This document shows positions 934 to 46,651 of a stretch of DNA of 46,651 nt, piece after piece. The DNA is from Escherichia phage vB_EcoS-733R5, in sequence record ON470608.1. One strand, written 5' to 3'. Positions within the stretch are counted from its first letter, which is position 1. The number at the start of each line of letters is the position of its first letter. The position numbers were made by a program, and so were the translations under genes. The notes beneath the pieces are model-generated. The model ran no database searches and was not told the DNA's origin. It saw only the letters and a program-made list of their open reading frames with translations.

Positions 934-1008
934 ATGGCGAGGGTTTAAGCAATCGAGCGGCAGCGTACTTACCCCGCAGTCCATTAGCGGGTATACTCAT
1001 GCCGCATT

Positions 1009-1035
1009 GTCCTCTTAGTTAAATGGATATAACGA
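1009..1035. repeat. 27-bp direct repeat of the tRNA-Arg 5' end (one mismatch); candidate attL core
   Basis: gtcctcttagttaaatggatataacga here versus gtccccttagttaaatggatataacga at 42243..42269; it lies about 75 bp after the yfdC stop and marks the transition into AT-rich accessory DNA. Confidence 0.7.
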
Positions 1036-4229: not shown

Positions 4230-6183
4230 TGATTGATATCTGACTGACAGTGCATGATCTGCCCTCTGATAAACGTCGCGGTAGGGATACCCGTTACCGG
4301 GTACCCCCCGCACAGATCCCGGCGTGCGCTATTCACGCACCGGGCTCCTGCCTTGGGTGTCTGGCGGTGAACCGCTCCACAGGCCATGGATGCAGAACCC
4401 GAACCTTCGGCAGCCATACGGCTGCCAGTCTGTTTGCTTTCGTCCATGTCGTATCATCCTGCTGGCTCCTGCGCCTCAGCGCCCGTCGCCAGAGGTCTGT
4501 TACGTATATCCTGAACTTCCGCATCATGGGATAGTTGCCCGGGACTGAGTGGTAGTTCAGGTATCCCTGAACCACTCTCCTGAGCCATTTTCCCTGTTCG
4601 GGGATTGAGTAATGCCAGCGCTTTCGTAGTCCGTCCTTGATCGCTTTCAGTGTCGCCGTCATCCTGTCCCGGCGTGTCTTTCGTATCAGCATGAACCTGC
4701 CACTACGATCTTTCCCACTGATATGCGTGAACCCGAGGAAGTTGAACGTTTCTGGTTTACCTTTTCCCCTGCTGGCGCGGTTTTCGGCTGCGAAGCGGCC
4801 GAACTCCGTCAGTCGGGTTTTCTTCGGATGTACCGTGAGTCCGAACTCCTTCAGTCTGCGCTGCATGGCTATACGAAAGCATTGAGCGTCGATTCGCTTG
4901 TCGAACCCGATGACTATGTCATCTGCGTATCTGACCATGACCACATTGCCTGTGGCATGGCGGCGTCGCCACTGATGCGCCCACAGATCGAAGACATAGT
5001 GGAGGTAGATGTTTGCCAGCAGCGGCGAGATAACCGCACCCTGTGGGGTGCCTTCCTCCGATGCCCGCCATTCTCCTTCCTCTGAGGTCCCGGCTGTGAG
5101 CCACTTTCGTATGAGCCTGATTACCCTCTGGTCGCCGATTCTGTGTTCTATGAACCTGATTAGCCATTCATGGCTTACCTTGTCGAAGAACTGACTGATA
5201 TCGGCATCCAGTACCCAGTTTACATTGGTCCGAACCAGCCCTGTGGCCAGTGCGTCCAGCGCATTGTGCTGGTTTCGCCCGGGTCTGAACCCGTATGAAA
5301 ACCCCATAAAGTCATTTTCGTAGACTGCATTCAGGATCTTAACCAGCGCATACTGGACGATTTTGTCCTCCAGTGAGGCGATGCCGAGCGGGCGCTGTTT
5401 TCCATCCGCTTTCGGGATGTAGTGCCGCCTGCCGGGCTGAGCCCTGTAACTACCCTGATGAAGCCTCCGGTGCAGATCTGCTATGTTGACCTTCAGGTTT
5501 TCGGCGTAGTCCTTCCACCTGACACCATCAACTCCGGCAGCCGCTTTCCTGCTCAGGGAGAGGAATGCGTTCTCCAGTGCCTCTGCTGTCAGGAGGTGGA
5601 ACAATGCGGTAAACCGTTCTTTCTTCCGCTGCTTCGCAGCTTCCCGCACGCGTGACAGCCTCTGTGACATACTTTCCCGGCTCTGCGTCCGGCGCATGTG
5701 TGGCTGTTCCGCGTTTCCCTTGGCCCCGCTCCTTCGCTCCACTGACTCCGCTCCTTGCGGATTGTTCGCCAGATTCGCAGCTACTATGAGCGAGTCCGAC
5801 TTCTCCTCTCCGTACATCACCGGCTTCGGCTCCTCGCCTTCCCGGTGCGGGCCATCTCCGGCACTGGCAGATGGTCAGAGGGGAGATCTCCCGGTTCCCG
5901 CGTAAAGATCGTATTGACATGCCAGGGTCTCAGACCCCGCCGGGTCCATATGGCACTCGCAGTAACGCACCCTATGATGTTGCCTTCCGTAAACAGTACA
6001 ACGTCGGCACCCGGGAATTTAATATACATTTCGTGGCTCAATGGCTGGCCTGTCAACACCCCTGTCAACGCTTCGCCCCATACCTCACGGTATACAACGC
6101 ATGACTCGGGGACCCTGTGGATTGCTGGTCCTTCAATGGTCGGGGACTTTCACCCCTTGATCTTTACCGGTCTCCCGGCGCAC
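4230..6183 (-). mobile_element. Group II intron (3' boundary approximate)
   Basis: The minus strand begins GTGCGCCGGGAGACCGG (5' consensus GUGCG) at 6183, contains the RT/maturase ORF, and has a domain-V-like hairpin with a GTAA tetraloop at about 4278..4311. Confidence 0.7.
4333..5820 (-). CDS. Group II intron-encoded reverse transcriptase/maturase (LtrA-like)
   Basis: 495 aa with RT motifs (FxGxxxGxxxSPLLANIYL, YADD active site) followed by a maturase X-like domain. Confidence 0.85.
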   Translation of the reverse strand: MMYGEEKSDSLIVAANLANNPQGAESVERRSGAKGNAEQPHMRRTQSRESMSQRLSRVREAAKQRKKERFTALFHLLTAEALENAFLSLSRKAAAGVDGVRWKDYAENLKVNIADLHRRLHQGSYRAQPGRRHYIPKADGKQRPLGIASLEDKIVQYALVKILNAVYENDFMGFSYGFRPGRNQHNALDALATGLVRTNVNWVLDADISQFFDKVSHEWLIRFIEHRIGDQRVIRLIRKWLTAGTSEEGEWRASEEGTPQGAVISPLLANIYLHYVFDLWAHQWRRRHATGNVVMVRYADDIVIGFDKRIDAQCFRIAMQRRLKEFGLTVHPKKTRLTEFGRFAAENRASRGKGKPETFNFLGFTHISGKDRSGRFMLIRKTRRDRMTATLKAIKDGLRKRWHYSIPEQGKWLRRVVQGYLNYHSVPGNYPMMRKFRIYVTDLWRRALRRRSQQDDTTWTKANRLAAVWLPKVRVLHPWPVERFTARHPRQEPGA

Positions 6184-30252: not shown

Positions 30253-31194
30253 ATGACGAGTGCAGTTGCGGTAAAAAAACCCAAAAAACTACGAATTGGC
30301 TTCTATACGAGTAGTTCTGGAACCATTCGAAGCAACTCTGTTGCCAAAGCTGCGATCGATAGCCTTTACAGCACTTGCGTGAATGTAACTAACAATCATT
30401 TCGATACTACATATAAAAATAAAAAGTTGAAAATTGCGTTTATAAATAAAGACACTAATGCCAAATATTATTTTGGCTATATGTCTTGCTCAAGAGAAGA
30501 GTACCTCCTTCCTTATATTGGCGATGAGCACTGGAAAGAACACAACATCCCATTGGATGATAAAAAATACATTGTCGAGCGTACTTATTTTTTATATTAC
30601 TATGAAAGCGACATTTTGATCCTTACGCAAAACCATCTTGGTCCAAAGGAATCTGATCTCGCTTATCTTCTTTATAGCCAAAGTGGACAGCCTGGAAACA
30701 ATTTTTCTTTCCAAGCCATTTGGAAGAAAGAAAGTATTAAAGAACTTCTCGAAACAGGAAGTACACTTAGAAGCTGCGAACTTATCCTAGCTGCTCCACG
30801 AAACTTCGATGTGACTAATTATCAGTTAGATAGTTCTTTTTCGAAAGAACTATTAAATATGATGATTGGTCTTGGTGGTACGCATTTAAAAATCAATCTT
30901 AGAGGGAGAGCTTCTGGAAGAGTTAAAGTTAAAGGCTACCTTTCGGATGTGGTAAAAGATGGTATTAAAGAATTATTAGAAAAAATACCGAATATTGTCA
31001 AAAAAGCAGCAGTAACACAGCCAAAAAACACTGCTGAGCAGAGTCTGCTTGAACAGGTTCTCATCTCGGAAAAAAATATACATACCGTAAACGGCTATGG
31101 CACAGATAGCGATGTGCTCCAAGCGATGATTTCTGCTAAAATTGATAATAATGGTTACCTTATGCAGTACGACATAAGCATTAAGAAGGTATAG
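30253..31194 (+). CDS. Cargo protein A: soluble ~313-aa protein (possible RexA-like sensor)
   Basis: AT-rich gene antisense to the late operon; aggaa SD; N-terminal GFYTSSSG; Lys-rich; no confident family assignment. Confidence 0.55.
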   Translation: MTSAVAVKKPKKLRIGFYTSSSGTIRSNSVAKAAIDSLYSTCVNVTNNHFDTTYKNKKLKIAFINKDTNAKYYFGYMSCSREEYLLPYIGDEHWKEHNIPLDDKKYIVERTYFLYYYESDILILTQNHLGPKESDLAYLLYSQSGQPGNNFSFQAIWKKESIKELLETGSTLRSCELILAAPRNFDVTNYQLDSSFSKELLNMMIGLGGTHLKINLRGRASGRVKVKGYLSDVVKDGIKELLEKIPNIVKKAAVTQPKNTAEQSLLEQVLISEKNIHTVNGYGTDSDVLQAMISAKIDNNGYLMQYDISIKKV

Positions 31195-31197
31195 TTT

Positions 31198-31641
31198 ATG
31201 TTATTGAGATATATAGCAAATATAATAGGAAGCATTTTTTTGACATACTTGTTATTGAAGTATGTTCCTTTAATGCAACATAATGACATTCTCACATCAG
31301 CAGGGGTCATCTCTACTGTTTCAGGAATCTTGTTTGGTTTTGTGCTTGCTACTATTTCGATTTTCAGTGCAGCTAGCGCCAATTCAAATGGGGTCTTGAA
31401 AGCTTTAAAAAACAACAACATACTTCAAGGTATAGTAACTAATTTATTAGCTGCTGGAGCGACACTAATTACAGCATGCTTAATTTCACTTATTGCCATG
31501 TTTGCCAGCGAGCAATTAATTTACAATGACAAAAAAATAGAGTTCATATTCATCATTCAATCATTATCACTATTGATAGTAGCAATTATAATGTTTGGGT
31601 TTACTTGGCGTAAAATTAATTGGATTTTACCATATATTTAA
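31198..31641 (+). CDS. Cargo protein B: ~147-aa membrane protein with about four TM helices (possible RexB-like effector)
   Basis: Starts 3 nt after gene A with an aagaagg SD; four hydrophobic segments; followed by a terminator. Confidence 0.55.
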   Translation: MLLRYIANIIGSIFLTYLLLKYVPLMQHNDILTSAGVISTVSGILFGFVLATISIFSAASANSNGVLKALKNNNILQGIVTNLLAAGATLITACLISLIAMFASEQLIYNDKKIEFIFIIQSLSLLIVAIIMFGFTWRKINWILPYI

Positions 31642-39713: not shown

Positions 39714-39899
39714 ATGACTTCTAAGGATTTTATGGAAGAGAAAGAAGTATTCGAATTGCTGGGGAAGAAAAAAACAGCTGTGTGGCGTTTACGTAAAGAG
39801 CATGGTTTTCCTCAACCTGTTCTCACCTATCCAACACGCTATAGCAGGAAAGCAGTTTCAGAATGGTTGGAGAGAGGTGGAGTTAATAGCCACAGATAA
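39714..39899 (+). CDS. AlpA-family HTH regulator / excisionase-like protein
   Basis: 61 aa; EVFELLGKKKTAVWRLRKEHGFPQPV resembles the AlpA/Xis-type HTH. Confidence 0.55.
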   Translation: MTSKDFMEEKEVFELLGKKKTAVWRLRKEHGFPQPVLTYPTRYSRKAVSEWLERGGVNSHR

Positions 39900-39996
39900 A
39901 TTAACAAAAAGTGAAACACAATGGCTTTAAGTATGTTTAGTTACATTTAAAGCCATACAGAACACTAACCTATTATATTTCAATATATACCCATCA

Positions 39997-40857
39997 CTAT
40001 TCTTCCATCCCACCTTCATTTATTAAGCCCTGAGACAACCCATAGGTTGCTAACAGTTCTTTTATACTACCCTTTGTTTTTTGAAAATCCAAAGCAAGCC
40101 TTTCTGCAGACTTTGTATCATTGATCATATTGTTTTCACCAATCAACTCACTCCTAAGCTTATTTAATACATCGGTATAAAAGTAATTGTGCCAATTATA
40201 AATATAAATCTCACCAAATTTATCAAAACCTTCCTTTGAAGCAGGAATCACCTCAATTATTTTTTTGCTTATCTCTCCTTCATTTAGAATGTTGTGTTTT
40301 CTAGCTAAGGGGATTGACAAAAAACGAAGAGATATTAGAGCAAACAAAGATATTGATTCATATATTTCAAAAGATTTAAGTGTGCTTTCACTCAAATATA
40401 ATTTCATAGTATCCTTATCAAAACCATTATACTCTTCTAACTTTTCATTTATTTTTAATGGCCTTGTGATAGCTTCCATAAAGTCATTAAGTCTTTGGTC
40501 ATCTCCCATTTTCATTATCTCTTTGACATTAAGCATCTGCATATATTGCACCGCCATAGATAAACCAATTAGGTATTTACGAATCTTAATTAAATTCTCA
40601 GCTGATTCGAATCTTTTTGACTGGAGAACAGAATCCCTGCTTGTTCTCACATTGGAAAGATAATTCCTTATTTGCTCCAGTTCTTTCTCGCCCTCTCTCA
40701 CTTCAGATTTAAATTTTTCAAGTTTTGTATCAAACTTGTGTTCAATAGATTTTGTAAGAAATTTTCCAATACTATCTCTAAATAAGTAGCCAACTCCAGA
40801 GATAAATGCTGCTGATGTAACGATACTAACAAGCCATTTTAATAATTCGCTATTCAT
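39997..40857 (-). CDS. AT-rich cargo protein with an N-terminal hydrophobic helix
   Basis: 286-aa ORF between the excisionase-like gene and the integrase; Lys/Glu/Ile-rich; no family recognised. Confidence 0.5.
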   Translation of the reverse strand: MNSELLKWLVSIVTSAAFISGVGYLFRDSIGKFLTKSIEHKFDTKLEKFKSEVREGEKELEQIRNYLSNVRTSRDSVLQSKRFESAENLIKIRKYLIGLSMAVQYMQMLNVKEIMKMGDDQRLNDFMEAITRPLKINEKLEEYNGFDKDTMKLYLSESTLKSFEIYESISLFALISLRFLSIPLARKHNILNEGEISKKIIEVIPASKEGFDKFGEIYIYNWHNYFYTDVLNKLRSELIGENNMINDTKSAERLALDFQKTKGSIKELLATYGLSQGLINEGGMEE

Positions 40858-40887
40858 GATGACCTCGACAAACCTAACAAAAAGAAT

Positions 40888-42056
40888 TTATCTTAACTTA
40901 TTTACTTGCCAAAATATTTTGTCCGCGTACTTTTCGTATGCTTCCTTCTGCTCCACCAGCCAATCGTGTTTGTTATAAACCGCCATCACTCCCCCTAACT
41001 CATGCCCCAGCATCTTTTCAGTGACGTGAGGCATAACCCCTTCCCCTGATAAATTCGTCACCAGCGAACGCCTGAAGTCATGTGTTCGCCACTCTGGTAT
41101 ATCAATTTTATCCCTTAATTTTTTCATATAGAGATTTGCTGACGAGCGATCTATAGGCTTGTCGAGTTCCTGGCCGGGAAACAGAACATCATTTCCAGCA
41201 TTGAGGAGCCTTTCAACAAAAGGTTTCACCTGGTCAAACACCGGGCGACGGATTACGTTACCCATCTTTGAATGTTCTGCTGGAGTCGTCCAGATAAGAT
41301 CATCCATATTGAACTCACTGGCAGTAGCAAGGCGCAGCTCTGATAGCCTGGCTCCCCAAAGCAAAAGCAGCTGATGAAGCACCTTGTTGGAGGTAACGAT
41401 CTTGTTGTTCTCCAGCGCCAGCCAGATTTTAGCCAACTCGGTATACGTGAGAACACGGCTACCCACATCAGGTTTTTTTCCAATGGTCTTAACACTTAGC
41501 TTCAGGACTTCGCACGATGGGATCAACTGGCGACTGATACACCAGTTCATGACGGAACGTAGCTGCAGAAGAAGCACCCTGGCCTTTTTGCTGTTCTTCT
41601 TTTCCTGCTTATCAAAGAAACGCACCCATGCCGAAACAGGAATGTTTACTACCGGAGCGTCCGGGAATTCTGTGTACATCGTGTTGTACACAACTGACTT
41701 GTACAGCGTCTGAGTGTTCGGCTTCAGCGTTTCAACATACTTGCCCCACCACTGATCCAGGCACTCTTTGAGAGTCAGCTCGCCATCTTCTTTGGCAAAA
41801 TAATTTTTCGGGTTTAGCCCCTTGAGGTACAATTCGCGCATCTCACCGACGACAACGCGCGCCTCCTTGAGAGACATAGCGGGATAGCGGCCAATGGAGA
41901 GGCGAACGGGCTTACCGTTCCAGCGATAACGAAACTGGAATGTGATCGTGCCTGTGGGAGTTATGCGTACACTCAGCCCGTCACCATCTGTGACCTCAGC
42001 TGCGCCGCTGTATGGCTTAGCATTGATGCTACGGAGTTTGGTATCACTAAGGGCCA
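40888..42056 (-). CDS. Tyrosine integrase (P4-like family), likely GTG start
   Basis: N-terminal ALSDTKLR...PYSGAAEVTDGDGLSVRITP and C-terminal HDFRRS...VMAVYNKH are integrase hallmarks; there is no ATG near the conserved N-terminus, so the GTG at 42056 is proposed. Confidence 0.75.
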
Positions 42057-42242
42057 CGGCTCTGTATCCTGTACACACTGAAATTCTGCATTCTGTACTC
42101 AATGTGTACGCAATGGCAAGTGAACGAAGTGATTTTCTAAGCGAATCGATGCGAACGGAAAGGAAATAAAAGGAATGAAATGCTTGATGGTACGGGGAAT
42201 GATAGGATAACATGCAACACAAGCTGAACGCTTAAAAATCAG

Positions 42243-42317
42243 TAAGTTCTATGTCCCCTTAGTTAAATGGATATAACGAGCCCCTCCTAAGGGCTAATTG
42301 CAGGTTCGATTCCTGCA
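42243..42317 (+). tRNA. argW: tRNA-Arg (anticodon CCU)
   Basis: 75-nt cloverleaf-compatible sequence with a GTCCCCT/AGGGGAC acceptor stem, CCU in the anticodon loop, a GTTCGATTC T-loop and a 3' CCA. Confidence 0.9.
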
Positions 42318-42768
42318 GGGGACACCAGATACCCTTCAAACGAAATCTACCTTCACCCCGTAAAAGATGGGTTTGGCAGCACACTTGCCTTATATCTACT
42401 CATTTTTACTGCAACAGGTTGAAATCTCAGCACTGTCAGAAAGCGCTGATGACTAAACAGCCCTGGGCCGGGCGATGTAACCATCACACAGAATCCTGAT
42501 AGCGAAATATGGCGTGACTCGATACTTCACTCCGCAATGCATTCCTTGATGAATTCGCAGGACCGTGATACACGGGACAGGTCACTGAATGACGACAATG
42601 TCCTGGAAATCAGCGAACCGCGCATCTGAAGTACATTTGAGCGACTGTACCAGAACATGAATGAGGCGTTTGGATTAGGCGATTATTAGCAGGGCTAAGC
42701 ATTTTACTATTATTATTTTCCGGTTGAGGGATATAGAGCTATCGACAACAACCGGAAAAAGTTTACGT

Positions 42769-44016
42769 CTATATTGCTGAAGGTACAGGCGTTTCCATAA
42801 CTATTTGCTCGCGTTTTTTACTCAAGAAGAAAATGCCAAATAGCAACATCAGGCAGACAATACCCGAAATTGCGAAGAAAACTGTCTGGTAGCCTGCGTG
42901 GTCAAAGAGTATCCCAGTCGGCGTTGAAAGCAGCACAATCCCAAGCGAACTGGCAATTTGAAAACCAATCAGAAAGATCGTCGACGACAGGCGCTTATCA
43001 AAGTTTGCCACGCTGTATTTGAAGACGGATATGACACAAAGTGGAACCTCAATGGCATGTAACAACTTCACTAATGAAATAATCCAGGGGTTAACGAACA
43101 GCGCGCAGGAAAGGATACGCAACGCCATAATCACAACTCCGATAAGTAATGCATTTTTTGGCCCTACCCGATTCACAAAGAAAGGAATAATCGCCATGCA
43201 CAGCGCTTCGAGTACCACCTGGAATGAGTTGAGATAACCATACAGGCGCGTTCCTACATCGTGTGATTCGAATAAACCTGCATAAAAGACAGGAAAAAGT
43301 TGTTGATCAAAAATGTTATAGAAAGACCACGTCCCCACAATAAATATGACGAAAACCCAGAAGTTTCGATCCTTGAAAACTGCGATAAAATCCTCTTTTT
43401 TTACCCCTCCCGCATCTGCCGCTACGCACTGGTGATCCTTATCTTTAAAACGCATGTTGATCATCATAAATACAGCGCCAAATAGCGAGACCAACCAGAA
43501 GTTGATATGGGGACTGATACTAAAAAATATGCCGGCAAAGAACGCGCCAATAGCATAGCCAAAAGATCCCCAGGCGCGCGCTGTTCCATATTCGAAATGA
43601 AAATTTCGCGCCATTTTTTCGGTGAAGCTATCAAGCAAACCGCATCCCGCCAGATACCCCAAGCCAAAAAATAGCGCCCCCAGAATTAGACCTACAGAAA
43701 AATTGCTTTGCAGTAACGGTTCATAAACGTAAATCATAAACGGTCCGGTCAAGACCAGGATGAAACTCATACACCAGATGAGCGGTTTCTTCAGACCGAG
43801 TTTATCCTGAACGATGCCGTAGAACATCATAAATAGAATGCTGGTAAACTGGTTGACCGAATAAAGTGTACCTAATTCCGTCCCTGTCAACCCTAGATGT
43901 CCTTTCAGCCAAATAGCGTATAACGACCACCACAGCGACCAGGAAATAAAAAAGAGAAATGAGTAACTGGATGCAAAACGATAGTACGCATTTCTGAATG
44001 GAATATTCAGTGCCAT
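42769..44016 (-). CDS. cscB: Sucrose:H+ symporter (LacY-like MFS permease)
   Basis: 415 aa with 12 predicted TM helices; LacY-like N-terminus; adjacent to cscK and cscA. Confidence 0.8.
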   Translation of the reverse strand: MALNIPFRNAYYRFASSYSFLFFISWSLWWSLYAIWLKGHLGLTGTELGTLYSVNQFTSILFMMFYGIVQDKLGLKKPLIWCMSFILVLTGPFMIYVYEPLLQSNFSVGLILGALFFGLGYLAGCGLLDSFTEKMARNFHFEYGTARAWGSFGYAIGAFFAGIFFSISPHINFWLVSLFGAVFMMINMRFKDKDHQCVAADAGGVKKEDFIAVFKDRNFWVFVIFIVGTWSFYNIFDQQLFPVFYAGLFESHDVGTRLYGYLNSFQVVLEALCMAIIPFFVNRVGPKNALLIGVVIMALRILSCALFVNPWIISLVKLLHAIEVPLCVISVFKYSVANFDKRLSSTIFLIGFQIASSLGIVLLSTPTGILFDHAGYQTVFFAISGIVCLMLLFGIFFLSKKREQIVMETPVPSAI

Positions 44017-44087
44017 AATTACCTGCCTGTCGTTAAAAAATTCACGTCCTATTTAGAGATAAGAGCGACTTCGCCGTTTACTTCTCA

Positions 44088-45002
44088 CTATTCCAGTTCT
44101 TGTCGACATGGCAGCGCTGTCATTGCCCCTTTCGCCGTTACTGCAAGCGCTCCGCAACGTTGAGCGAGATCGATAATTCGTCGCATTTCTCTCTCATCTG
44201 TAGATAATCCCGTAGAGGACAGACCTGTGAGTAACCCGGCAACGAACGCATCTCCCGCCCCCGTGCTATCGACACAATTCACAGACATTCCAGCAAAATG
44301 GTGAACTTGTCCTCGATAACAGACCACCACACCTTCTGCACCTTTAGTCACCAACAGCATGGCGATCTCATACTCTTTTGCCAGGGCGCATATATCCCGA
44401 TCGTTCTGTGTTTTTCCACTGATAAGTCGCCATTCTTCTTCCGAGAGCTTGACGACATCCGCCAGTTGTAGCGCCTGCCGCAAACACAAGCGGAGCAAAT
44501 GCTCGTCTTGCCATAGATCTTCACGAATATTAGGATCGAAGCTGACAAAACCTCCGGCATGCCGGATCGCCGTCATCGCAGTAAATGCGCTGGTACGCGA
44601 AGGCTCGGCAGACAACGCAATTGAACAGAGATGTAACCATTCGCCATGTCGCCAGCAGGGCAAGTCTGTCGTCTCTAAAAAAAGATCGGCACTGGGGCGG
44701 ACCATAAACGTAAATGAACGTTCCCCTTGATCGTTCAGATCGACAAGCACCGTGGATGTCCGGTGCCATTCATCTTGCTTCAGATACGTGATATCGACTC
44801 CCTCAGTTAGCAGCGTTCTTTGCATTAACGCACCAAAAGGATCATCCCCCACCCGACCTATAAACCCACTTGTTCCGCCTAATCTGGCGATTCCCACCGC
44901 AACGTTAGCTGGCGCGCCGCCAGGACAAGGCAGTAGGCGCCCGTCTGATTCTGGCAAGAGATCTACGACCGCATCCCCTAAAACCCATACTTTGGCTGAC
45001 AT
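44088..45002 (-). CDS. cscK: Fructokinase (ROK/pfkB-like sugar kinase)
   Basis: 304 aa with VLGDAVVD and GAGDAF sugar-kinase motifs. Confidence 0.8.
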   Translation of the reverse strand: MSAKVWVLGDAVVDLLPESDGRLLPCPGGAPANVAVGIARLGGTSGFIGRVGDDPFGALMQRTLLTEGVDITYLKQDEWHRTSTVLVDLNDQGERSFTFMVRPSADLFLETTDLPCWRHGEWLHLCSIALSAEPSRTSAFTAMTAIRHAGGFVSFDPNIREDLWQDEHLLRLCLRQALQLADVVKLSEEEWRLISGKTQNDRDICALAKEYEIAMLLVTKGAEGVVVCYRGQVHHFAGMSVNCVDSTGAGDAFVAGLLTGLSSTGLSTDEREMRRIIDLAQRCGALAVTAKGAMTALPCRQELE

Positions 45003-45107
45003 TTTTTTCCCTTAAATTCATCTGAGTTACGCATAGTGATAAACCTCTTTTTCGCAAAATCGTCATGGATTTACTAAAACATGCATATTCGATCACAAAA
45101 CGTCATA

Positions 45108-45183
45108 GTTAACGTTAACATTTGTGATATTCATCGCATTTATGAAAGTAAGGGACTTTATTTTTATAAAAGTTAACGTTAAC
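45108..45183. promoter_or_regulatory. Divergent csc promoter region with two GTTAACGTTAAC palindromes (candidate CscR operators)
   Basis: Perfect 12-bp palindromes at 45108..45119 and 45172..45183 in the AT-rich cscK/cscA intergenic region. Confidence 0.5.
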
Positions 45184-45217
45184 AATTCACCAAATTTGCT
45201 TAACCAGGATGATTAAA

Positions 45218-46651
45218 ATGACGCAATCTCGATTGCATGCGGCGCAAAACGCCCTAGCAAAACTTCATGAGCACCGGGGTAACACTTTCTATCCCCATTT
45301 TCACCTCGCGCCTCCTGCCGGGTGGATGAACGATCCAAACGGCCTGATCTGGTTTAACGATCGTTATCACGCGTTTTATCAACATCATCCGATGAGCGAA
45401 CACTGGGGGCCAATGCACTGGGGACATGCCACCAGCGACGATATGATCCACTGGCAGCATGAGCCTATTGCGTTAGCGCCAGGAGACGATAATGACAAAG
45501 ACGGGTGTTTTTCAGGTAGTGCTGTCGATGACAATGGTGTCCTCTCACTTATCTACACCGGACACGTCTGGCTCGATGGTGCAGGTAATGACGATGCAAT
45601 TCGCGAAGTACAATGTCTGGCTACCAGTCGGGATGGTATTCATTTCGAGAAACAGGGTGTGATCCTCACTCCACCAGAAGGAATCATGCACTTCCGCGAT
45701 CCTAAAGTGTGGCGTGAAGCCGACACATGGTGGATGGTAGTCGGGGCGAAAGATCCAGGCAACACGGGGCAGATCCTGCTTTATCGCGGCAGTTCGTTGC
45801 GTGAATGGACCTTCGATCGCGTACTGGCCCACGCTGATGCGGGTGAAAGCTATATGTGGGAATGTCCGGACTTTTTCAGCCTTGGCGATCAGCATTATCT
45901 GATGTTTTCCCCGCAGGGAATGAATGCCGAGGGATACAGTTACCGAAATCGCTTTCAAAGTGGCGTAATACCCGGAATGTGGTCGCCAGGACGACTTTTT
46001 GCACAATCCGGGCATTTTACTGAACTTGATAACGGGCATGACTTTTATGCACCACAAAGCTTTTTAGCGAAGGATGGTCGGCGTATTGTTATCGGCTGGA
46101 TGGATATGTGGGAATCGCCAATGCCCTCAAAACGTGAAGGATGGGCAGGCTGCATGACGCTGGCGCGCGAGCTATCAGAGAGCAATGGCAAACTTCTACA
46201 ACGCCCGGTACACGAAGCTGAGTCGTTACGCCAGCAGCATCAATCTGTCTCTCCCCGCACAATCAGCAATAAATATGTTTTGCAGGAAAACGCGCAAGCA
46301 GTTGAGATTCAGTTGCAGTGGGCGCTGAAGAACAGTGATGCCGAACATTACGGATTACAGCTCGGCACTGGAATGCGGCTGTATATTGATAACCAATCTG
46401 AGCGACTTGTTTTGTGGCGGTATTACCCACACGAGAATTTAGACGGCTACCGTAGTATTCCCCTCCCGCAGCGTGACACGCTCGCCCTAAGGATATTTAT
46501 CGATACATCATCCGTGGAAGTATTTATTAACGACGGGGAAGCGGTGATGAGTAGTCGAATCTATCCGCAGCCAGAAGAACGGGAACTGTCGCTTTATGCC
46601 TCCCACGGAGTGGCTGTGCTGCAACATGGAGCACTCTGGCTACTGGGTTAA
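45218..46651 (+). CDS. cscA: Sucrose-6-phosphate hydrolase / invertase (GH32)
   Basis: WMNDPNG and FRDP motifs with an EC catalytic pair (MWECPDF); agga SD 9 nt before the MTQSRL start. Confidence 0.85.
   Translation: MTQSRLHAAQNALAKLHEHRGNTFYPHFHLAPPAGWMNDPNGLIWFNDRYHAFYQHHPMSEHWGPMHWGHATSDDMIHWQHEPIALAPGDDNDKDGCFSGSAVDDNGVLSLIYTGHVWLDGAGNDDAIREVQCLATSRDGIHFEKQGVILTPPEGIMHFRDPKVWREADTWWMVVGAKDPGNTGQILLYRGSSLREWTFDRVLAHADAGESYMWECPDFFSLGDQHYLMFSPQGMNAEGYSYRNRFQSGVIPGMWSPGRLFAQSGHFTELDNGHDFYAPQSFLAKDGRRIVIGWMDMWESPMPSKREGWAGCMTLARELSESNGKLLQRPVHEAESLRQQHQSVSPRTISNKYVLQENAQAVEIQLQWALKNSDAEHYGLQLGTGMRLYIDNQSERLVLWRYYPHENLDGYRSIPLPQRDTLALRIFIDTSSVEVFINDGEAVMSSRIYPQPEERELSLYASHGVAVLQHGALWLLG

Follow-up and report, generated by a model that had tools for sequence, protein, structure and literature searches.

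An AT-rich cargo gene between the integrase and excisionase-like genes of an argW prophage encodes a predicted membrane-anchored protein of an orphan family that may act in phage exclusion

What is an AT-rich gene of no recognised family doing between the integrase gene (int) and the excisionase-like gene (xis) of a prophage? The question is raised by a 46,651-nt stretch of DNA (record ON470608.1, Escherichia phage vB_EcoS-733R5), referred to here as the window. Its reverse complement is deposited as GenBank ON470622 (Escherichia phage vB_EcoS-716R3, 'partial genome'), the record of a predicted prophage. The window contains a lambdoid-type siphovirus element at argW. The gene in question, called X here, is an open reading frame (ORF) with an ATG start at positions 39997–40857 on the minus strand (WP_032412855.1, 286 amino acids (aa), annotated as 'hypothetical protein'). 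The original prediction, made from the sequence of the window and a list of its ORFs, had singled it out as lying at a recurrent hotspot for defence genes, and the position, strand and length that it gave were confirmed exactly. We found that X is a genuine, conserved gene of an orphan family, and that it is an accessory, moron-type cargo gene that stands outside the integration machinery. As to its role, our preferred reading, to which we assign a probability of about 0.4 and which is reached by inference, is that X is a single-gene, membrane-anchored phage-exclusion protein of the abortive infection (Abi) type, expressed in the lysogen.

The predicted AT-richness of X relative to its neighbours was evident, with a GC content of 0.319 (0.289 at third codon positions) against 0.488 for int, 0.506 for the prophage and approximately 0.50 for the window, and the lowest-GC 861-nt stretch of the whole 46.6 kb falls inside it. 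Both the extreme AT content and an annotation that is merely 'hypothetical' would suit a spurious or decaying ORF within AT-rich spacer DNA. That explanation is refuted by the conservation data and we regard its probability as negligible. An exhaustive HMMER search of 1.84 billion representatives recovered relatives of X in 358 representative clusters at E≤1e-3 (91 at E≤1e-10 and 28 at E≤1e-30), nearly all of 260–310 aa and aligned end to end, and these full-length homologues keep the length, the transmembrane helix and the motifs described below. Pairwise ratios of non-synonymous to synonymous divergence (dN/dS) among the enterobacterial alleles were 0.07–0.24 wherever dS was estimable, far under 1 and indicative of purifying selection. 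AlphaFold gave a confident model from the alignment of the family, and the ATG is preceded at a distance of 5 nt by a GAGG Shine-Dalgarno sequence (positions 40863–40866, minus strand).

The closest relatives make up 18 clusters from Klebsiella, Citrobacter and Enterobacter that are 43–100% identical over at least 92% of X, and the same search gave one additional fragment of 172 aa. The enterobacterial alleles are as divergent from one another as from the homologues found in Mesorhizobium, Ensifer and Bordetella (42–47%). Judged by source names, WP_032412855.1 is mostly found in Klebsiella pneumoniae. In E. coli it is patchy and rare, present in 11 of 5426 complete genomes, and the gene is identical in those 11 genomes and in the phage record ON470622.

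If X is real, is it part of the recombination module or cargo within it? X starts 30 nt beyond the int stop codon and, as the original prediction had stated, on the same strand. The integrase (389 aa, positions 40888–42057, minus strand) is a P4-type tyrosine integrase of the Arm-DNA-bind_3 plus Phage_integrase type, an assignment taken from RefSeq and from Pfam searches of its homologues. On the other side, 97 nt separate the end of X from a convergent 61-aa helix-turn-helix (HTH) gene (positions 39714–39899, plus strand; RefSeq 'helix-turn-helix transcriptional regulator'), the last gene of the early-left operon. The claim that X lies between the integrase and an excisionase-like gene therefore stands as to position, but the 'excisionase' label is based on the size and position of the 61-aa gene and a faint HTH_17 match on a homologue. 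The 61-aa protein had no relatives among PDB sequences.

The integrase gene was found in 21 E. coli genomes, in all cases at argW, and X was present in 11 of these. Conservation at the int-adjacent position, which the original prediction had proposed to check, was thus partial, with the other genomes holding unrelated genes. Homology in the genomes without X ends 7–22 nt from the int stop codon; strain 720632 is the exception, the 3′ end of its int having been replaced by IS1. Sister prophages with 92–97% identical int DNA and the same tRNA carry unrelated genes before the conserved xis-like gene. The commonest alternative occupant in E. coli (five genomes) was an orphan of 437 or 438 aa with no Pfam or PADLOC match (L024 5239–6555, L025 5241–6554 and L028 1611–2924, all minus strand). 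DUF2971 proteins (L026 2217–2906, plus strand; L027 2017–2955, minus strand) and a 481-aa caspase-family protein (L030 1454–2899, minus strand) were also found, and the remaining contents of the slot in E. coli were three small hypothetical genes or IS1. The two occupants that were compared with the X profile, namely the 438-aa orphan and the first gene in strain EC31, were unrelated to X. The int–xis slot of this prophage lineage is therefore a variable cargo hotspot, and the earlier claim of a hotspot at the int-proximal junction is supported for this lineage by the DUF2971, caspase-family and other unrelated genes. The DUF2971 family includes Aristaios, a lactococcal single-gene Abi protein with an ADP-ribosyltransferase-like fold whose activity has been validated by experiment. 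Members of that family share the slot with X in sister prophages, but their fold is unrelated and the link to X is positional only.

This arrangement recalls the P2/P4 hotspots and the Gamma-Mobile-Trio (GMT) islands with their GAPS proteins, in which core genes flank a fixed position that is filled by cassettes unrelated to one another, most of them small or of a single gene and many with an anti-phage role. The X slot differs from both in being between int and the xis-like gene of a lambdoid-type prophage at argW. The possibility that X is itself a GAPS protein was rejected. When the X family profile was compared using hmmsearch with the first 89–126 residues of GAPS2, 3, 5, 6a, 7a and 8–13, nothing was found below E 0.07, and GAPS1 and GAPS4 are PD-(D/E)xK proteins.

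The gene order int, X, convergent xis was constant in every enterobacterial locus examined, and an HTH_17 gene and a serine integrase are likewise found close to one distant relative of X. Such synteny would be expected of an accessory integration or excision factor, or a regulator, inherited together with int and xis. Nevertheless, we consider a role of this kind very improbable, as sister prophages with the same int and xis dispense with X and carry unrelated genes instead, many relatives of X have no recombinase nearby, and X is membrane-anchored and matched no HTH or other DNA-binding family. Homology to an integration or regulatory factor, an outcome that the original prediction had named as counting against it, was looked for and came out negative. 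The sequences of int and X also do not co-evolve. In a comparison of enterobacterial genomes, IMG/VR contigs and metagenomes from which near-identical copies of the same prophage were left out, integrases 90–98% identical at the protein level to that of the window preceded X alleles that were 81, 70, 68, 64, 56, 48, 47, 45, 40 or 38% identical to X.

The divergence is sharply bounded. Between the window and locus L020, dS was 0.13 for int and saturated for X. Nucleotide identity fell from 0.95–0.98 in int to 0.70–0.72 in X and rose again to 0.85 across xis and 0.90 across the early genes, and the trough is therefore confined to X and its spacers. These sequence comparisons show that long-diverged variants of X have been replaced allelically within conserved int and xis flanks, and that X is a mobile cassette not tied to the integrase that accompanies it. 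Its composition is foreign: in almost all hosts examined, high-GC alphaproteobacteria among them, X-like genes lie approximately 10–17 GC points under the surrounding DNA; at two X-like loci the gap was only 1–2 points. X thus shows the traits of a moron, namely unrelated inserts between the same core genes, a foreign composition and expression signals at the level of a consensus match.

The third of these traits bears on whether X could be expressed in a lysogen. A promoter-like sequence, TTGGCA-16-TAAATT, was found by consensus scan at positions 40885–40912 (minus strand), with the −35 element in the last int codons and the −10 element overlapping the int stop codon. A similar site, with TAnnnT located 16–18 nt downstream of TTGGCA and often taking in the int stop codon, is present in 12 of 18 related loci (among the int 3′ ends of L003–L041) whatever cargo follows. 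On sequence grounds, the conserved 3′ codons of int could act as a promoter for the cargo. Promoter-like sites around X were no more numerous than expected from shuffled sequence. On the far side of X, a terminator-like hairpin with a U-rich tail (positions 39905–39982, minus strand; −19.4 kcal/mol, z=−2.1) was predicted by RNA folding between X and the xis-like gene. Because X converges on the early-left operon, it would be transcribable while that operon is repressed.

What kind of protein would then be made? The original prediction had described one that is rich in Lys, Glu and Ile, with a single hydrophobic N-terminal segment and a long helical body. This description fits well. Glu (10.5%), Lys (9.8%) and Ile (9.1%) are abundant, though Leu is the most frequent residue (11.9%), and Ser also reaches 9.1%. 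Hydropathy and residue profiles placed a single transmembrane helix at residues 8–26 (codons 8–26, positions 40780–40836, minus strand). An AlphaFold model based on a 123-sequence alignment was all-helical and confident, with a predicted local distance difference test (pLDDT) score of 93.5 and a predicted template modelling score of 0.75, while 17 sequences alone gave a weak model (pLDDT 68). The confident model consists of a continuous helix from residues 2–97 followed by a compact helix bundle at residues 100–271.

The transmembrane helix is preceded by an N-terminal tail of approximately 7–8 aa that is acidic or neutral, and W8 is conserved. In 121 of the 123 relatives there are more Lys and Arg residues in the 15 residues after the helix than in the tail (means 3.2 and 0.3), and by the positive-inside rule the tail would therefore lie outside and the body in the cytoplasm (N-out/C-in). 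X is accordingly predicted, on the basis of the model and the charge distribution, to be a bitopic inner-membrane protein with a periplasmic tail and a cytoplasmic stalk and head.

The stalk (codons 27–97, positions 40567–40779, minus strand), delimited using the AlphaFold helix, conservation and a column profile, is the best-conserved part of the protein, with a mean pairwise identity among the close relatives of 0.71 compared with approximately 0.50 in the head. It includes the conserved residues R27, F42, E47, K50, R74, K81, E84, A85 and E87, and most of the conserved charged residues of the family are found here. A hydrophobic, heptad-like stripe runs along it (residues 30, 34, 38, 42, 46, 49, 53, 60, 63 and 67), and one face of the transmembrane helix is rich in Gly, Ala, Ser and Thr (positions 16/17, 20 and 23). 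Both features are typical of helix–helix packing and suggest that X may oligomerise. The predicted cytoplasmic head is a helical bundle (codons 98–272, positions 40042–40566, minus strand) in which only Y166, P205 and G215 are near-invariant, and for this reason it has no apparent catalytic site. No conserved catalytic motif, HEPN included, was found in the family alignment.

Is this a known family? X had no significant match in Pfam, PADLOC (PADLOC-DB v2.0.0), PHROGs (v4) or NCBIfam (20.0), with sub-threshold coiled-coil noise only in Pfam, PHROGs and NCBIfam. When the 123 relatives were scanned singly against Pfam, PHROGs and NCBIfam the matches were scattered, and none occurred in more than two members. 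The same was true of PADLOC, where the best match had E 2e-4. Among the annotated families, Abi_2, Abi_C, AbiEi, the holins and superinfection exclusion (Sie) proteins gave no match to X above the curated thresholds. The family profile found nothing below E 0.18 among PDB sequences, and X had no match in BFVD. A literature search on the accession and on similar proteins found no description of the family, and the phage record is named in one paper only, a survey of prophages. The original statement that no family could be recognised thus held for Pfam, PADLOC, PHROGs, NCBIfam and PDB sequences alike. None of the libraries searched describes the family or the arrangement of its fold; the probably defensive prophage moron next to int is in itself a familiar arrangement.

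The earlier remark that X resembles single-gene Abi proteins in general character only is also apt. AbiP of Lactococcus and PdpSau of Staphylococcus aureus prophages are, like X, products of single accessory genes of mobile elements (prophages or plasmids), approximately 250–300 aa long and with no partner gene, and in them an N-terminal transmembrane helix tethers a cytoplasmic body, as is predicted from the model for X. There is no sequence similarity between these proteins and X. The cytoplasmic part of AbiP and PdpSau combines a nucleic-acid-binding region resembling an OB-fold with a positively charged C-terminus, but the X model is all-helical with a coiled-coil-like stalk and has no OB-fold. 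The gene positions differ too, as pdpSau adjoins the lysis module and X adjoins int.

Two further comparisons were made. Csx28, the membrane-pore accessory protein of Cas13b (PDB 8gi1), provides a pore-forming analogy to the mechanism proposed below, not a homologue, and X, judged by specific structural match, HEPN-like motif and association with Cas13b, does not qualify as a Csx28-like pore. Four-helix-bundle (4HB) sensor domains (the MCP2201 ligand-binding domain, PcaY, TorS, HK9 and NarQ) share 2–7% sequence identity with X. In these proteins the bundle sits in the periplasm, flanked by two transmembrane helices, and signals to an output domain. X, with its single transmembrane helix, lacks an output domain and is predicted to be located in the cytoplasm, and it does not belong with 4HB_MCP. 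The Pfam 4HB models matched neither X nor its relatives.

How could such a protein exclude phages? Each part of the answer, from expression in the lysogen through oligomerisation and sensing to membrane damage and an anti-phage effect, is inferred. X would be expressed in the lysogen either from a promoter within the last part of int or by transcription continuing out of int, and its stalk of approximately 70 residues would probably oligomerise as a coiled coil. On the cytoplasmic side of the membrane, the head may recognise a protein of an incoming phage, whereupon the stalk and transmembrane helices would rearrange or oligomerise and compromise the membrane, leading to an outcome like that of abortive infection. 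Among the mechanisms considered, an Abi-like one fits X best because the head is variable and apparently non-enzymatic, the conserved stalk is prone to oligomerise and the transmembrane helix has a packing face. A broader proposal is more tentative and, in our view, on the unlikely side: X would be the founding member of a widespread new family of single-protein anti-phage systems, composed of a tethered coiled-coil stalk and a variable helical-bundle head that would sense a phage protein at the inner membrane and bring about membrane failure, with a promoter at the int 3′ end driving old alleles exchanged as cassettes. If so, the recombination module of the prophage would double as an expression platform for interchangeable defence genes.

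The same features could also serve a non-lethal exclusion of superinfecting phages, in which X blocks an early step of infection, such as DNA translocation or the use of an inner-membrane transporter, from the cytoplasmic face. X is a prophage gene oriented for possible expression in the lysogen, is predicted to encode a bitopic inner-membrane protein without an enzymatic motif, and occurs as many divergent alleles on one integrase backbone, as would be expected for a specificity determinant. However, the bulk of X is predicted to be cytoplasmic with only approximately 7 residues outside, while classical exclusion proteins such as Imm, Sp, Cor, Llp and HK97 gp15 work at the envelope and are small. 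In addition, neither PHROGs nor sequence comparison links X to any known Sie family, and the X family is common outside prophages, leaving this form of exclusion rather unlikely.

The contexts in which the distant relatives are found provide a further guide to function. No conserved partner gene was found across these neighbourhoods. In a Photobacterium damselae plasmid, the X relative is the first gene after gmtY-gmtZ-gmtX; GMT islands have been described as rich in defence cargo. A Bordetella relative follows an integrase and a Schlafen/AlbA_2 protein that matches the PADLOC candidate PDC-S50, and in one metagenomic lineage (L033) a TIR_2 gene lies two genes upstream of the X relative. Other relatives were found with DUF4411, Peptidase_M78 and DUF4365 genes, with an MNT-type nucleotidyltransferase gene, with a baeRF family 11 gene or with vapBC, and some have recombinases nearby. 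The very distant relative mentioned above is three genes from the HTH_17 gene and the large serine integrase, at the edge of an element.

The defence interpretation has to be set against a reading in which X is cargo of another kind. It could serve as a scaffold tethered to the membrane, act in membrane homeostasis or stress, or contribute to lysogenic conversion or host fitness, with the slot being simply a place that tolerates insertions. The conservation of the stalk under purifying selection would suit this, as would the many relatives with ordinary chromosomal neighbours and an architecture like that of structural bitopic proteins; weak matches to F-ATPase subunit b models were seen in three of the 123 relatives. 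Three results also lend the Abi-like reading no support. The PADLOC check suggested in the original prediction gave no support, with no matches to X at E≤10 in the PADLOC hidden Markov models, a result that itself favours non-defence cargo. Approximately half of the contexts of the distant relatives are housekeeping or uninformative, not defence-like. Finally, positive selection on X was not detected, with saturated dS in comparisons of alleles and omega under 0.25 wherever it was estimable, and the replacement of alleles is not a sign of recent positive selection. On the other hand, defence-type genes accompany X in the same slot and in other elements, X is patchy and rare in E. coli, its composition is foreign in most hosts examined, and highly divergent alleles have been swapped on one backbone. 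Overall, we consider a non-defence function unlikely, if one to be taken seriously.

If X does protect against phages, it would represent a new defence family absent from the library versions searched, and its allelic series, together with the predicted non-enzymatic, membrane-anchored architecture, would be well suited to specificity mapping. X could affect host range in phage therapy because its carriers are mainly prophages of Klebsiella, Enterobacter and Citrobacter and carbapenemase-era clinical isolates of E. coli. The int–xis slot of the argW prophages is a small, well-delimited hotspot in which the 437/438-aa orphan, the caspase-family protein and the three-gene cassette are also candidates. 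Should X turn out to have no phenotype, it would be just another conserved hypothetical moron.

Several candidate assignments arising from the neighbourhoods were rejected. In the metagenomic lineage with TIR_2, positions 1403–4375 of L033 (plus strand) contain a same-strand run of TIR_2, a 204-aa orphan, the X-like gene (with an overlapping start) and a 276-aa orphan, beside a tRNA-Thr gene. This run could be a multi-gene system with the X-like protein as one component. Comparison with the family profile rejected the 276-aa protein, and likewise the similar-sized neighbours of other relatives, as paralogues of X. In one lineage a sigma-70 gene lies downstream of the X relative, but X as an anti-sigma factor was rejected since the topology of anti-sigma factors is opposite to that predicted for X and the linkage was found in one clade only.

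The prophage is delimited by 28-nt att repeats that are 96% identical, attL at positions 1008–1035 (plus strand) and attR, its direct repeat, at positions 42252–42279, and is approximately 41.2 kb long. Host chromosome is present at both ends of the window, at positions 1–933 (a yfdC-like inner membrane protein gene) and 42769–46651 (cscB, cscK and cscA). The argW gene for tRNA-Arg(CCT), identified using ARAGORN and Rfam, is at positions 42253–42327 (plus strand) with its first 27 nt in the attR copy. The overlap of the att repeat with the 5′ end of the tRNA gene places this prophage family on the 5′ side of argW; the 3′ side is occupied in E. coli EC31 by a CPS-53-type intS element, and the single tRNA gene there has an element on each side.

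Some annotations in ON470622 require correction. Among the tail genes, 'A-kinase anchor protein 5', 'obscurin', 'nitrite transporter' and 'kinase' are evident automatic mislabels. A gene labelled 'retron-type RNA-directed DNA polymerase' was considered as a defence retron and rejected, as it encodes a group II intron maturase. The intron is at positions 4333–6150 (minus strand), with a match to Rfam RF02005 (D1-D4) at 5925–6150 (184 bits), and its reverse transcriptase/maturase ORF at 4333–5820 matches group II intron reverse transcriptases in the PDB (E ~1e-42). A second AT-rich island was found at positions 30253–31641 (plus strand; GC 0.34–0.37) and includes two ORFs of 313 and 147 aa, the first of which is mislabelled 'portal' in GenBank; neither has relatives among PDB sequences. 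Both run opposite to the flanking antiterminator Q and holin genes, in the classic Q–lysis moron position, and they may be another cargo or defence candidate.
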